Sequence record: PV946933.1
Strand: one strand, 5' to 3'
DNA: 64,000 nt
Origin: a phage
Part shown: piece by piece, positions 21,603-31,055 of the stretch
Layout: each line of letters starts with the position of its first letter
Position numbering within the stretch: the first letter of the stretch is position 1
Program-made: the position numbers and the translations under genes
The notes under the pieces: model-generated
What the model was told of the DNA's origin: nothing
The model's database searches: none
Seen by the model: the letters and a program-made list of their open reading frames with translations, nothing else

Positions 21603-21875
21603 ATGAAAACTTTCAAAGAGTTTATCGTTGAATCTGCTCTTAATGAAGAAGTAAAAATTAGCAAATCTGTTAAGACTATGATTGATAATATAAATCATCT
21701 TTATAACATTGATTTGACGAATCATGTAACGTTAGGAAATAAACGAAACTTTTTTGTATTTGATATTTCAGAACTTGATCAGAATCAAATTAATAATATT
21801 GAACGCTTTGCTAATGAAAAAGGTCTGCGTCACGAGACGGCTGGTTATAAAAAATATGCAATTTATTTAAAATAA
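21603..21875 (+). CDS. Internal protein (IPI-locus) with capsid-targeting leader
   Basis: ORF track 90 aa; N-terminus MKTFKEFIVE matches the T4 internal-protein capsid-targeting sequence; position of ipI next to 57B. Confidence 0.7.
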   Translation: MKTFKEFIVESALNEEVKISKSVKTMIDNINHLYNIDLTNHVTLGNKRNFFVFDISELDQNQINNIERFANEKGLRHETAGYKKYAIYLK

Positions 21876-21878
21876 ATT

Positions 21879-21908
21879 GTTTACACGGTGGTTTAGTTGT
21901 GATACTAT
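21879..21908 (+). promoter_or_regulatory. T4-type early promoter
   Basis: GTTTAC, 18 nt, TACTAT upstream of next IP gene. Confidence 0.5.
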
Positions 21909-21942
21909 TACCCTATCAAAACAAAACTAAATGGAAATCAAA

Positions 21943-22251
21943 ATGAAAACATATCAAGAATTTATCAATGAAGCGGCTGCACCAAAGACATTCGTTATTA
22001 ATACTCAGGCGAGTCTTGATGATGAGTACGCGGAGGCAATTCTGAGGTCACTTGCTAAGAACGGCGTTGAAGTAATCGCCTCGGACTTTAAGAAAGGGGC
22101 TTCCGAGATGTTTATTTCTATAACTAAAGGATCTAAAGCTAAAATCAAATCATCATTCGGTGTTGCTCGTACCGATCAAATCGACAATCATGACTTTAAA
22201 CAAACTGGTGTTAAACGGCAGAACACAATTGCATCACGCGGAATAAAATAG
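21943..22251 (+). CDS. Internal protein (IPII-like) with capsid-targeting leader
   Basis: ORF track frame, start at second ATG giving MKTYQEFINE leader; paralogous to ORF 30753..31055. Confidence 0.7.
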   Translation: MKTYQEFINEAAAPKTFVINTQASLDDEYAEAILRSLAKNGVEVIASDFKKGASEMFISITKGSKAKIKSSFGVARTDQIDNHDFKQTGVKRQNTIASRGIK

Positions 22252-22263
22252 TTTATAAAAACA

Positions 22264-22293
22264 GTTTACTTTTAGATGGGGTAGTGATACTAT
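22264..22293 (+). promoter_or_regulatory. T4-type early promoter with inverted repeat bracketing -10
   Basis: GTTTAC, 18 nt, TACTAT; GATGGGGTA/TACCCTATC imperfect inverted repeat. Confidence 0.5.
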
Positions 22294-22321
22294 TACCCTA
22301 TCAACTACTGAGGAGAATAAA

Positions 22322-22507
22322 ATGAAACGTTGTGAATTAATTCGAAATGTTGCTATTGCAATTTCTGCTTCCGCTTTTAGTTTTTCAATGTTTGTTGGAT
22401 TTATATGCGGATTATTAACTACAGCAGAAAATGTTTTTTCACTTGTAGTAGCATTTTTAATTGGTTTAATCGCTATTGTTATGGATAAAATTTCTAAAGG
22501 TGAATAG
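22322..22507 (+). CDS. Small hydrophobic membrane protein
   Basis: ORF track 61 aa; two predicted TM helices; GAGGAG RBS upstream. Confidence 0.5.
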   Translation: MKRCELIRNVAIAISASAFSFSMFVGFICGLLTTAENVFSLVVAFLIGLIAIVMDKISKGE

Positions 22508-22508
22508 A

Positions 22509-22886
22509 ATGTATAAAGTGTACGCGGATTATCAGGCTAATCCATCTAAAAAGCCAAGCTGTCAAATAGGATGGGCTCATGATACTTTGCTTGAAGCAGT
22601 AGATGCTGCTCAAAAATTGGGATATAAATATGTAGAGATTGTTCAACTACCATCAGGAAAAGTTATTACTCTTGAAGAGTTCAATAATATTAAACCAAAC
22701 TTTTTACTTTTTGCAGGTGATAATTATTATCCTCGTGGTGGATATGATGATTTGATTGCGTATGCTGAAACAGAAGATGAATTACGCCAAATTATTGAAG
22801 ACAATAAATCAAAACGATTTGGCGATAGTTTTGACTGGTGGCAAATCGTAAATGCCCATACACATACTATTGTTGATAAAGGTTAA
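22509..22886 (+). CDS. Hypothetical protein
   Basis: ORF track frame 22476..22886; start moved to ATG after AAAGGTGA RBS (MYKVYADYQ). Confidence 0.55.
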   Translation: MYKVYADYQANPSKKPSCQIGWAHDTLLEAVDAAQKLGYKYVEIVQLPSGKVITLEEFNNIKPNFLLFAGDNYYPRGGYDDLIAYAETEDELRQIIEDNKSKRFGDSFDWWQIVNAHTHTIVDKG

Positions 22887-22888
22887 TA

Positions 22889-23176
22889 ATGATTCTTTAT
22901 GCGAAAGTATCATCCATTGAAAATGGATATAAATATGATCAAGAAGCAGCTAAAGCCTTGATTGATGATTATGGCATTTTAACATGTTTTGAAGTTGAAA
23001 AGGTTTACATTGACCGTTCATCTTCTCAAGTTAAATTAGTGAAGGAAGACCGTAAATTTAATACAGTAAATTTTGATTTCTTTATTGAAACAGAAAAAGG
23101 TCCTCTTGAATATGATATTTTCAAGAATCCTTTGGGTCTTGAATGCATCGTAAATATGTATTATCATAAATGGTAA
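22889..23176 (+). CDS. Hypothetical protein
   Basis: ORF track 95 aa; tightly packed after previous gene. Confidence 0.5.
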   Translation: MILYAKVSSIENGYKYDQEAAKALIDDYGILTCFEVEKVYIDRSSSQVKLVKEDRKFNTVNFDFFIETEKGPLEYDIFKNPLGLECIVNMYYHKW

Positions 23177-23273
23177 ATATGCTTTAAGAATTATTTGTTA
23201 TTATTAACTCATATCGCACTGATTAATACCCTCTATCATCAAGGGTTCTTGTTTGAGAGCCTTTGTTAATAAT

Positions 23274-29196: not shown

Positions 29197-29199
29197 TTT

Positions 29200-29233
29200 T
29201 ATAAATACCTTCTATAAATACTTAGGAGGTATT
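29200..29233 (+). promoter_or_regulatory. Tandem late promoters (TATAAATA at 29200-29207 and 29213-29220) embedded in an RBS-sequestering hairpin for gene e
   Basis: AATACCT (29204-29210) pairs with AGGTATT (29227-29233), which overlaps the GGAGG Shine-Dalgarno. Confidence 0.6.
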
Positions 29234-29728
29234 ATGAATATATTTGAAATGTTACGTATAGATGAAGGTCTTAGACTTAAAATCTATAAAGACACAGAAG
29301 GCTATTACACTATTGGCATTGGACATTTGCTTACTAAAAGTCCATCACTTAGTGTTGCTAAATCTGAATTAGATAAAGCTATTGGGCGTAATTGCAATGG
29401 TGTAATTACAAAAGATGAGGCTGAAAAACTCTTTAATCAGGATGTTGATGCTGCTGTTCGCGGAATTCTGAGAAATGCTAAATTAAAACCGGTTTATGAT
29501 TCTCTTGATGCTGTTCGTCGTTGTGCATTGATTAACATGGTTTTCCAAATGGGAGAAACCGGCGTAGCAGGATTTACTAATTCTTTACGTATGCTCCAAC
29601 AAAAACGCTGGGATGAAGCAGCAGTTAACTTAGCTAAAAGTCGATGGTATAATCAAACACCTAATCGCGCAAAACGAGTCATTGCCACGTTTAGAACTGG
29701 TACGTGGGACGCGTATAAAAATTTATAA
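29234..29728 (+). CDS. e: Endolysin (T4 lysozyme, gene e)
   Basis: ORF track 164 aa; [33 protein letters not shown]... near-identical to T4 lysozyme with a few substitutions. Confidence 0.95.
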
Positions 29729-29732
29729 AGTT

Positions 29733-29762
29733 GTTTACTTTCTCCTAGAACTGTGATAGTAT
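29733..29762 (+). promoter_or_regulatory. T4-type early promoter
   Basis: GTTTAC, 18 nt, TAGTAT upstream of ATG 29800. Confidence 0.45.
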
Positions 29763-29799
29763 ATTCATAGTTACTAATTAAAATATTTAAAGGAACCAT

Positions 29800-30117
29800 A
29801 TGAAAACGTTTAAAGAATTTATTGCAGAATCTGCCCAAGGACAACGTGTAGAAGGCGGTTATATCTGGATTGAACAAGTTGAGCCGCCAAGTCGCACTTC
29901 TACAGGTAAATGGAAAATCACTGTTGATGGTCCTGGTGGTAAACGTAGGACTCTTAAAGAAATTAACGGGTACTATGAAGAAGCTCTTTCTGACGCGGGT
30001 ACTTATATGATGCAAATCATGATTAAAAACCCAGAAAATCGTTTTGCGGCTAGAGTTTTCCGCCGTATTGGAAATAAGCTTTATGATGCATATTCTAAAA
30101 ACTTCCCTAAAGAATAA
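29800..30117 (+). CDS. Internal-protein-like protein with capsid-targeting leader
   Basis: ORF track 105 aa; N-terminus MKTFKEFIAE. Confidence 0.65.
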   Translation: MKTFKEFIAESAQGQRVEGGYIWIEQVEPPSRTSTGKWKITVDGPGGKRRTLKEINGYYEEALSDAGTYMMQIMIKNPENRFAARVFRRIGNKLYDAYSKNFPKE

Positions 30118-30132
30118 AAATAAAGGAAATAC

Positions 30133-30711
30133 ATGAAAACCTATAAAGAATTTATCGCTGAAGCTTCTGTAGTAAAGGCCAAAGGCATTAATAAAGATGA
30201 GTGGACTTATCGTGGCGGAAACGGCTTTGACCCTAAAACTGCTCCACTTGAACGATATCTAGCCACAAAAGCTTCTGATTTTAAAGCCTTCGCCTGGGAA
30301 GGACTTCGCTGGCGTAACGATCTAAATATTGAAGTTGACGGACTTAAATTTGCTCATATTGAAGATGTTGTTGCTAGTAACTTAGACGCAGCTTTTGTTA
30401 AAGCCGACAGTGATCTTCGTCGCTGGAATTTAAAACTGTTCTCTAAACAAAAAGGCCCGAAGTTTGTGCCTAAAGCCGGTAAATGGGTCATTGATAATAA
30501 ATTAGCTAAGGCTGTCAACTACGCTGGTCTTGAATTCGCCAAGCACAAATCATCATGGAAAGGTCTTGATGCAATGGCTTTCCGTAAAGAATTTGCCGAT
30601 GTTATGGCTAAAGGCGGCTTTAAGGCAGAAATAGATACCTCTAAAGGTACGTTTAAGGACGCTAATGTTCAGTACGCTTATGCCGTTGCTAATGCAGCCC
30701 GTGGTAATTAA
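30133..30711 (+). CDS. Internal protein III-like protein with capsid-targeting leader
   Basis: ORF track 192 aa; N-terminus MKTYKEFIAE; size and position (next to e) as T4 ipIII. Confidence 0.65.
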   Translation: MKTYKEFIAEASVVKAKGINKDEWTYRGGNGFDPKTAPLERYLATKASDFKAFAWEGLRWRNDLNIEVDGLKFAHIEDVVASNLDAAFVKADSDLRRWNLKLFSKQKGPKFVPKAGKWVIDNKLAKAVNYAGLEFAKHKSSWKGLDAMAFRKEFADVMAKGGFKAEIDTSKGTFKDANVQYAYAVANAARGN

Positions 30712-30713
30712 TA

Positions 30714-30731
30714 AGGCCTATACTTAGGCCT
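30714..30731 (+). terminator. Hairpin AGGCCTA-TACT-TAGGCCT after IPIII-like gene
   Basis: 7-bp perfect stem directly after stop codon, followed by ATTT. Confidence 0.4.
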
Positions 30732-30752
30732 ATTTACATTTAAAGGAAACAT

Positions 30753-31055
30753 ATGAAAACATTTAAAGAATTTATCACTGAAGCAAAAGCCCCGAAGGTT
30801 TTTCAAATTTGTTCACAAGGAAATTTAGACAAAGAATACGTTGACGCCATCGTAGCAAGCATTGTCAACCAAGGCGTGCAAGTAGATGCAGTTGAATTTA
30901 CCAAAGGCCCTACCTTTAATATCGTTGTATCTAAGGGTTCTTTGGCTAAAATTAAAAAGGCCTGGGGTGTTATGAGAGCTTACCAAGTAGATGATTCTGC
31001 TCCCGGGCCGAAAGTACGAATGAATACCCTTAAGGGAGGCCGTGAATACGTTTAG
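30753..31055 (+). CDS. Internal protein II-like protein with capsid-targeting leader
   Basis: ORF track 100 aa; N-terminus MKTFKEFITE; paralogue of 21943..22251. Confidence 0.65.
   Translation: MKTFKEFITEAKAPKVFQICSQGNLDKEYVDAIVASIVNQGVQVDAVEFTKGPTFNIVVSKGSLAKIKKAWGVMRAYQVDDSAPGPKVRMNTLKGGREYV

Follow-up and report, generated by a model that had tools for sequence, protein, structure and literature searches.

A Tequatrovirus internal-protein repertoire of seven leader-bearing genes, with two common, unannotated candidate members outside the recognized loci

Here, we analyzed a 64,000-nucleotide stretch of phage DNA (sequence record PV946933.1; the whole stretch is referred to below as the window), in which seven open reading frames (ORFs) between positions 21,603 and 31,055 open with the capsid-targeting leader of the T4 internal proteins (Ips). 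The window is from a Tequatrovirus (a T4-like coliphage) with a mosaic accessory region. We conclude, with a probability of roughly 0.8, that the seven genes, labeled P1 to P7 in order of position (Table 1), are this phage's polymorphic Ip set, comprising Ip9, Ip7, the unnamed P3 and P4, Ip10, IpIII, and a second Ip7-family copy, and that their products are injected and the set was assembled by cassette exchange. The variability of Ip repertoires, the leader, and the anti-restriction role are already established, and the first-pass annotation of this stretch, as written, adds little to them. The modestly new part is that P3 and P4 form a third Ip locus of two remotely related, very common, and unannotated leader-bearing genes, together with the rarity of P7.

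The first-pass annotation had reported seven ORFs that begin with MK[TS][YF]x[EQ]F[IL]xE, and all seven were recovered at their starts on the plus strand. A six-frame protein search with this regular expression returned exactly these seven in 64 kb and 0 matches in 200 shuffles; two looser leader expressions found no further matches, and relaxing the expression to catch the T4 IPI-type leader returned the same seven only. At the DNA level, the back-translated leader pattern matched seven times, versus 0.00 times in 100 dinucleotide-preserving shuffles. The seven-leader observation is thus real and far beyond chance. Every one of the seven ATGs has a GGA-type Shine-Dalgarno sequence 5 to 9 nucleotides (nt) upstream. 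The P2 start lies within a mechanical ORF that opens at 21931; its homologues are annotated as starting at MKTY.

The first ten residues of T4 IPIII suffice for prohead incorporation, and mutagenesis of IPIII has mapped targeting to residues 4 and 7 and processing to residues 8 and 10, with the prohead protease gp21 cutting after Glu in an L/I-x-E motif (PMC9026906, a review of the work of L. W. Black). In all seven leaders of the window, residue 4 is aromatic, residue 7 is Phe, residue 8 is Ile or Leu, and residue 10 is Glu, so that the gp21 motif [IL]xE occupies residues 8 to 10 throughout; the residue after the cut (the P1' position) is Ala or Ser in six of the seven. Across the genes, Thr3 uses all four of its codons, and Phe4, Glu6, and Ile8 use two each. 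Because synonymous codons differ between genes, the leader is conserved as a peptide and not merely as DNA. The mature parts, of 80 to 182 residues, have isoelectric points (pI) of 8.0 to 9.7, compared with 9.0 to 9.65 for the mature forms of T4 IPI, IPII, and IPIII, and the seven are more basic than 61 other small plus-strand ORFs (Mann-Whitney p = 0.003).

Five of the genes (P1, P2, P5, P6, and P7) lie inside the two recognized plastic Ip loci, 57B-trna.4 and e-denV. P1, P2, and P5 show 85 to 100% identity to Ip9, Ip7, and Ip10, respectively, and these names come from the matching sources. P1 matches phrog_7673 ("internal head protein") over its full length (E 9e-56), its 90% cluster includes the "Ip9" of phage IME08, RB32 Ip9 occupies the same locus, and 175 phage records carry it. 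P2 is 95 to 96% identical to the Ip7 of T2, RB32, and CC31. "Ip10 [Enterobacteria phage Pol]" (accession CAA84455, from the 1994 survey) is in the 90% cluster of P5, which is found in 190 records, and a P5 homologue is annotated ip10 in phage VR25. P6 is 94.5% identical to T4 IPIII over 182 amino acids (aa) and stands beside e, as in T4. For four of the seven proteins, the PHROG annotation is internal head or internal virion protein. None of the seven gave anything above threshold when searched against Pfam, NCBIfam, and PDB sequences; a single PDB sequence match was rejected, as it spans an artificial junction in the concatenated query.

P7 sits at the T4 ipII position, which suggested that it might be T4 IPII; this assignment was rejected, as the two share no sequence similarity. 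Among 50,697 phage records, P7 is 100% identical in LYE-01 only, and its 90% cluster has three members. Its next best match, at 91%, is in Klebsiella phage BovinicusUrsus, a sequence relationship that suggests exchange of the P7 cassette between phages of different host genera.

Judged from leader, charge, and PHROG membership, the reading of these genes as encoding capsid-targeted internal proteins is therefore correct in kind, as the first-pass annotation had it, although most of it was already known, five of the seven being already named. That annotation had also put forward four extra cargo proteins, beyond the three of T4, as candidate new effectors. This does not hold: the names Ip7, Ip9, and Ip10 date from 1994, screens of ip4-10 against GmrSD restriction enzymes have been published, and six of the seven mature domains, rather than four, are non-T4. 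The window contains no counterpart of T4 IPI or IPII, in that neither mature domain has a homologue there, and P6 alone has a T4 orthologue. In other respects the set resembles the T4 internal proteins: T4 IPII and IPIII start with the same type of leader (MKTYQEFIAE), the gp21 L/I-x-E motif is the same, the mature proteins are likewise small and basic, and the neighborhoods (57B-trna.4 and e-denV) are shared, with P6 as the IPIII orthologue. T4 IPI has a variant leader of 19 residues, MKTFKEFTSTTTPVSTITE/A (the slash marks the cut). RB32 carries Ip5-Ip9-Ip7 at the same locus as P1 and P2, flanked by direct repeats, and P7 belongs to the Ip7 family.

By analogy with the T4 proteins, the 10-residue capsid-targeting sequence would bind the scaffolding core of gp22 during prohead formation, and gp21 would cut after Glu10 in L/I-x-E and, in P3, probably also after Glu15. 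The basic mature proteins, of 9 to 20 kDa, would remain among the packaged DNA and be injected with it. In the cell they would act before phage gene expression, and their most probable role is stoichiometric inhibition of modification-dependent (type IV) restriction enzymes, with each protein directed at one enzyme variant. Cassette exchange at repeats of promoter, stem-loop, and leader DNA would have built up the repertoire. In this analysis, these steps are based on leader determinants, family identities, charge, loci, and cassette-like flanks; packaging and cleavage are known for the T4 IPs and GmrSD inhibition for IPIII, homologues of the proteins described here.

Anti-restriction activity has been demonstrated for several relatives. 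Silas et al. 2025 (PMC12373910) showed that Ip1, Ip2, and Ip3 inhibit one GmrSD enzyme apiece, a different one in each case, and do not cross-protect; the same study gives a figure of "at least 10" Ips for related phages and speaks of "the two Ip loci." Strain ECOR17 is a host on which the phage requires IPIII (Srikant et al., PMC9391042), and T4 IPIII blocks the GmrSD of ECOR17 (PMC12373910). A further leader-bearing protein at the ipI locus, Bas37_0260, blocks McrBC (HIDEN-SEQ preprint, bioRxiv 10.1101/2025.11.20.689424), which shows that Ips can target type IV enzymes beyond GmrSD. From its size and the position it shares with IpVI of PST, we take Bas37_0260 to be Ip6-like. Although it carries the leader MKTYQEFIAE at the ipI locus, its mature domain is not among the seven of the window, and we rejected the identification of P1 or P2 with it. 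Within the window, orthology to an Ip with a proven target is limited to P6; the other six are not orthologous to Ip1, Ip2, Ip3, or Ip6. The anti-defense idea put forward in the first-pass annotation is therefore the field's published model, shown for Ip1, Ip2, Ip3, and Ip6, of which IpIII alone is present here. The Dar head proteins of phage P1 and T4 Alt are likewise head-packaged proteins whose injection serves to protect DNA or to modify the host; they differ in their targeting signals and show no sequence relationship to the seven (family and PDB searches were negative). DarA and Hdf are reported also to affect head morphogenesis, a precedent for a dual structural and anti-defense role (PMC12810830).

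P3 and P4 lie outside both recognized Ip loci, between tRNA-Arg and e.8, an interval that in T4 holds rnaC and rnaD. The first-pass annotation had placed the seven genes in three clusters, and this layout was borne out: 57B, P1, P2, and trna.4; tRNA-Arg, P3, P4, and e.8 (with an ORF between tRNA-Arg and P3); and e, P5, P6, and P7. Support for P3 and P4 as members of the set comes from the same leader, the same basic charge, retention of the leader in a remote P4 relative (P0086, below), and a late promoter ahead of P3. The second LNE/A site of P3 ends at residue 15, and P3 homologues have one canonical site, e.g., MKSYAEFLTE/Q. RB32ORF133c and bas37_0244 belong to the P3 family. Neither gene is rare. 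P3 was found in 512 phage records by tblastn and P4 in 165, of which 161 are at 95 to 99% identity; for each, all 40 of 40 sampled rows were labeled "hypothetical" or "Phage protein" or were unannotated. Their PHROG, phrog_2280, is of "unknown function," and neither has a named Ip relative. The curated RB32 record names Ip5, Ip9, Ip7, and Ip4 yet leaves the P3 homologue as RB32ORF133c, and the RefSeq record of ECML-134 calls four genes "internal virion protein" but not the P3 and P4 homologues. Among the seven, P3 and P4 alone look unrecognized: common Tequatrovirus and Mosigvirus genes with a complete leader, they have been left out of the GmrSD-screened panels (ip1-10). Comparison of P3 and P4 with Ip4, T4 IPI to IPIII, and the other five window proteins gave no named match (Ip5, Ip6, and Ip8 were not compared directly). 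The identification of P3 with Ip4, both of 157 aa, was rejected for lack of similarity.

P3 and P4 are themselves related. The paralogy of P2 and P7 that the first-pass annotation had proposed is confirmed (47% identity over the mature parts), and it is the only link that BLAST of mature parts reveals; its further statement that this is the only paralogous pair is wrong. Direct BLAST of P3 against P4 found nothing beyond the leader, and a first hhalign comparison was weak. Both proteins, however, match one PHROG profile end to end, they share the same layout in AlphaFold models, and a profile-profile comparison of the P3 family with the P4 family, with P0086 added to the latter, gave 90% probability (E 1.6e-6 over 85 columns). 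On these grounds P3 and P4 are, at the level of sequence profiles, remote paralogues, and the seven genes form five families with two paralogous pairs.

The AlphaFold2 model of P3 (predicted local distance difference test [pLDDT] 73) has a helical N domain, a Pro/Lys/Ala linker, and a C-terminal helical hairpin; that of P4 (pLDDT 59, low confidence) is largely helical with a long C-terminal hairpin, in the same layout. A Foldseek search of the P3 model against the PDB gave no match at E < 1, and against BFVD it returned its own family and one weak T4-like match in Serratia phage PS2; the P4 model was judged too poor for a fold search. Among 1.84 billion representatives scanned exhaustively with HMMER, there was one remote P4 relative, P0086, of 204 aa, with 32% identity and the leader MITFNEFLNE. 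P0086 is encoded at 1419-2033 on a 2.6-kb metagenomic T4-like contig, directly upstream of a gene (2092-2526) with ART-PolyVal and DUF3990 Pfam matches (ADP-ribosyltransferase type). Another protein, P0087, of 869 aa with Asn-rich repeats, contains five tandem stretches resembling the P4 N-terminal domain (E 8e-6, 34% identity), a likeness that may be compositional.

A published transposon screen sets P4 apart. The Bas37 orthologues of P3 and P4 are bas37_0244 (85% identity) and bas37_0243 (98%; Bas37 sequence 8029-8592). In HIDEN-SEQ (Extended Data Table 7, 10.1101/2025.11.20.689424), bas37_0243 was hit at 1 of 48 TA sites and scored "Essential," whereas bas37_0244 was hit at 29 of 34 and scored "Non-essential." Mean reads were 0.2 for bas37_0243, compared with 300 to 1000 for its neighbors and 0.0 for baseplate genes. 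T4 ipI, ipII, and ipIII are fully tolerant of insertions in this data set, and the Bas37 Ip5 and Ip6 genes also tolerate them (10.1101/2025.11.20.689424). The preprint text is silent on bas37_0243. Polarity is an unlikely cause, because the downstream genes are non-essential. The same screen also gives an essential score to six T4 genes that are dispensable (inh, hoc, segE, uvsW, and segC, as well as wac). The bas37_0243 score may thus be either a real requirement, for a role in the head core, such as IPIII has in part, or for an antidote to a K-12 or phage-borne activity, or a locus-specific artifact. As the P4 orthologue is absent from the transposon library, it provides no host comparison. 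For another gene in the same data, bas37_0261 (Ip5-type, at 12864-13121, and not in the window), insertions were depleted (log2 fold change -2.09, adjusted p 0.00000) in a sheet taken as the K-12 versus CFT073 comparison, which hints at an unreported host-specific role.

We tentatively propose, as a possible but doubtful extension, that P4 is a leader-targeted head protein indispensable to its carriers, either a head-core accessory turned essential or an injected antidote to a lethal activity carried by the host or by a phage, and that with P3 it makes up a third Ip locus and a family with an architecture of its own. If this were true, it would break the rule by which the internal proteins of T-even phages are host-specific cargo against restriction and can be dispensed with. 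The unexplained "essential" score of the P4 orthologue is a concrete reason to examine P4 first.

Two rival explanations bear on the same score. One is that P4, and perhaps P3, is a leader-targeted part of the prohead core needed for head assembly, IPIII-like or scaffold-accessory and with a scaffold-like hairpin, rather than an injected anti-defense effector. The bas37_0243 insertion counts, as low as those of true structural genes, point this way, as do the tolerance of insertions in the T4 IP genes, Bas37 Ip5 and Ip6, and the P3 orthologue, and the improbability of polarity. T4 IPIII mutants form heads at half the rate and produce polyheads (PMC9026906), Bas37 has no Ip at the e locus, P4 is near-invariant across its 161 close records, and its predicted fold is largely helical with a long hairpin. 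Nevertheless, we regard this explanation as unlikely. P4 is accessory, being absent from T4, T2, PST, RB32, LYE-01, and Bas40; it coexists with IPIII here, in HMD-9, and in ECML-134 and is thus not a simple IPIII substitute; the miscalled T4 genes make a locus-dependent artifact possible; and the P4 model on which the hairpin is based is of low confidence.

The other, which we consider quite improbable, is that P4, as an injected or early-acting protein, inhibits a non-restriction defense or host factor in K-12 and is conditionally essential in the way that dmd is against RnlAB. The Bas37 library was selected on K-12 lacking restriction-modification systems, and bas37_0243 mutants were still missing; dmd scores as essential in the same screen only because K-12 carries RnlAB; and both the accessory distribution and the leader of P4 fit anti-defense cargo. 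Against this, P4 has no known target and, in family, PDB, and HMMER searches, no homology to any known inhibitor, and T4 and other P4-less phages grow on K-12, so that any sensitivity would need to be specific to P4 carriers.

Several points weigh against reading all seven genes as an injected, anti-restriction Ip set. The anti-type-IV role of Ip7, Ip9, and Ip10 is unproven, because ip4-10, when screened against eight active GmrSD systems, gave no reproducible inhibition (PMC12373910). Literature searches, which included the fPS-65 and fPS-90 papers, found no virion proteomics or N-terminal sequence for the six non-T4 proteins. The P3 orthologue is dispensable in K-12 and has no conditional requirement in the two comparison sheets, where bas37_0244 has log2 fold changes of -0.11 (first sheet, taken to be CFT073) and -0.30 (CFE299), neither significant. 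The P4 orthologue behaves as essential, an ill fit with dispensable anti-defense cargo. The first cleavage site of P3 has Val at P1', where the other six proteins have Ala or Ser. Genes 20 to 24 lie outside the window, so that the gp21 protease and gp22 scaffold core are not encoded within it; we infer their presence in this phage from 94 to 97% nucleotide identity to complete Tequatrovirus genomes.

The flanks of the genes are those expected if the Ip set was assembled by cassette exchange (Table 1). A 61-nt repeat containing an early promoter occurs in three copies (21523-21583, 21859-21919, and 22244-22304; 72 to 77% identical), one ahead of each of P1, P2, and trna.4, which they bracket. 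The promoter ahead of P1 fits the consensus of PeSL promoters in T4 and PST, TTTACW-N17-TAYWAT (PMC4122927). The site ahead of P5 scored below the threshold of the promoter scan and belongs to a repeat family of the window. Around the P3 homologue, the RB32 annotation records a "34 bp imperfect direct repeat." The DNA over the Shine-Dalgarno sequence, ATG, and leader is itself a 41- to 61-nt repeat, 66 to 76% identical. Krisch and colleagues proposed that PeSL cassettes drive modular shuffling and explicitly linked this to earlier observations at the IP locus (PMC4122927), and by sequence the window flanks have a PeSL-type cassette architecture. The P4 cassette is 96.8% identical at the protein level in Mosigvirus Bas46, which fits exchange between genera. 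The RB32 record also notes a "43 bp direct repeat" around Ip9 and Ip7, matching the arrangement of the 61-nt repeat in the window.

That the shared 5' end is a mobile regulatory or translation-initiation cassette (promoter, Shine-Dalgarno sequence, and first codons) rather than a working capsid-targeting signal in all seven genes would accord with these DNA repeats and with the known shuffling of genes by PeSL cassettes in such regions (PMC4122927), but it is very improbable given the synonymous leader codons and strictly kept function-mapped residues, which indicate selection on the peptide, the end of DNA similarity at codons 10 to 12, where the proteins diverge, and the basic charge of all seven mature parts.

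Table 1. Leader-bearing genes of the window and the promoter, hairpin, and repeat elements that flank them (slashes mark predicted gp21 cuts).
Feature	Position	Strand	Description
Early-type promoter ahead of P1	21544..21572	+	T4 early type, TTTACA-17-TACTAT, upstream TG; inside 61-nt repeat
P1 (Ip9)	21603..21875	+	90 aa; leader MKTFKEFIVE/S; mature 80 aa, pI 8.0
Early-promoter site ahead of P2	21880-21908		In a copy of the 61-nt repeat that also precedes P1
P2 (Ip7)	21943..22251	+	102 aa; leader MKTYQEFINE/A; mature pI 9.7; phrog_2667
Terminator hairpin	24779-24802	+	Strong; upstream of P3
Late-promoter box	24809-24816	+	TATAAATA; after the hairpin, 40 nt upstream of P3 ATG
P3 (unnamed)	24856..25329	+	157 aa; leader MKSYAQFLNE/VVLNE/A, two tandem L-N-E sites; mature pI 9.2; phrog_2280
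Second hairpin-bearing repeat	25334..25404	+	71 nt, between P3 and P4; 76% identical to 24776-24846
P4 (unnamed)	25455..26018	+	187 aa; leader MKTYAEFLTE/A; mature pI 9.5; phrog_2280; orthologue bas37_0243
Third hairpin	26027-26045		Closes P4
Early-promoter-like site ahead of P5	29734..29762	+	TTTACT-17-TAGTAT, TG; read from alignment
P5 (Ip10)	29800..30117	+	105 aa; leader MKTFKEFIAE/S; mature pI 9.6; phrog_3966
P6 (IpIII)	30133..30711	+	192 aa; leader MKTYKEFIAE/A; mature pI 9.65; phrog_5341, E 1e-117
Stem-loop	30714..30731	+	Between P6 and P7
P7 (divergent Ip7-family copy)	30753..31055	+	100 aa; leader MKTFKEFITE/A; mature pI 9.5; phrog_2667

Comparing repertoire size across related phages, we tallied ORFs with the leader across the homologous interval in ten others, scoring the Ip5-type and HMD-9 variant leaders by hand; Bas46 was partly covered and not counted. 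There are three in T4 and T2, four in PST, Bas37, and Bas40, five in RB32, six in ECML-134 and LYE-01, and eight in HMD-9. The HMD-9 count rests on mending one miscalled start: the gene at 10604-10864 is annotated as "internal head protein" starting at MYQEFIAE, but with an ATG that lies upstream it begins MKMYQEFIAE. Seven is thus near the top of a small sample and not unique. Nor is an expanded repertoire new, as the first-pass annotation had implied, given the "at least 10" Ips of the literature and the eight of HMD-9; such sets have been known since 1994, and at least ten Ip families have received names since the work of Repoila et al. in that year (EMBO J 13:4181; cited in PMC3012670 and PMC12373910), the source for Ip4 to Ip10 of other T-even phages. 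Petrov 2010 does not mention Ips.

Approximately 1,190 phage records match the 21- to 31.5-kb stretch, almost all of them from T4-like coliphages and their relatives. The best records are 94 to 97% identical over 81 to 89% of it, and none covers all of it at ≥99%. On the plus strand, the gene order is the T4 order reversed: gene 1 (dNMP kinase), 57A, 57B, two short ORFs, and trna.4/.3/.2, followed by ten tRNAs, several ORFs, e.8 to e.2, nudE, e (lysozyme), three ORFs, and vs-region genes. The tRNA array (23274-24105) has ten genes (Gln, Leu, Gly, Pro, Ser, Thr, Met, Tyr, Asn, and Arg), compared with eight in T4, and is without the segB homing endonuclease that splits the T4 array; an Rfam scan of the 21- to 31.5-kb stretch found tRNAs only. 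Between tRNA-Arg and P3, a 116-aa ORF without family assignment (24122-24472) is conserved in T2 (EcT2_00138) and in Bas37 (bas37_0245, non-essential). Immediately following the last ip gene, at the place of denV in T4, lies a 179-aa ORF (31134-31673) with no Pfam family above threshold but with a Walker-A-like motif, GGRQSGKST, and it is kept in LYE-01, HMD-9, Bas40, and Bas37.

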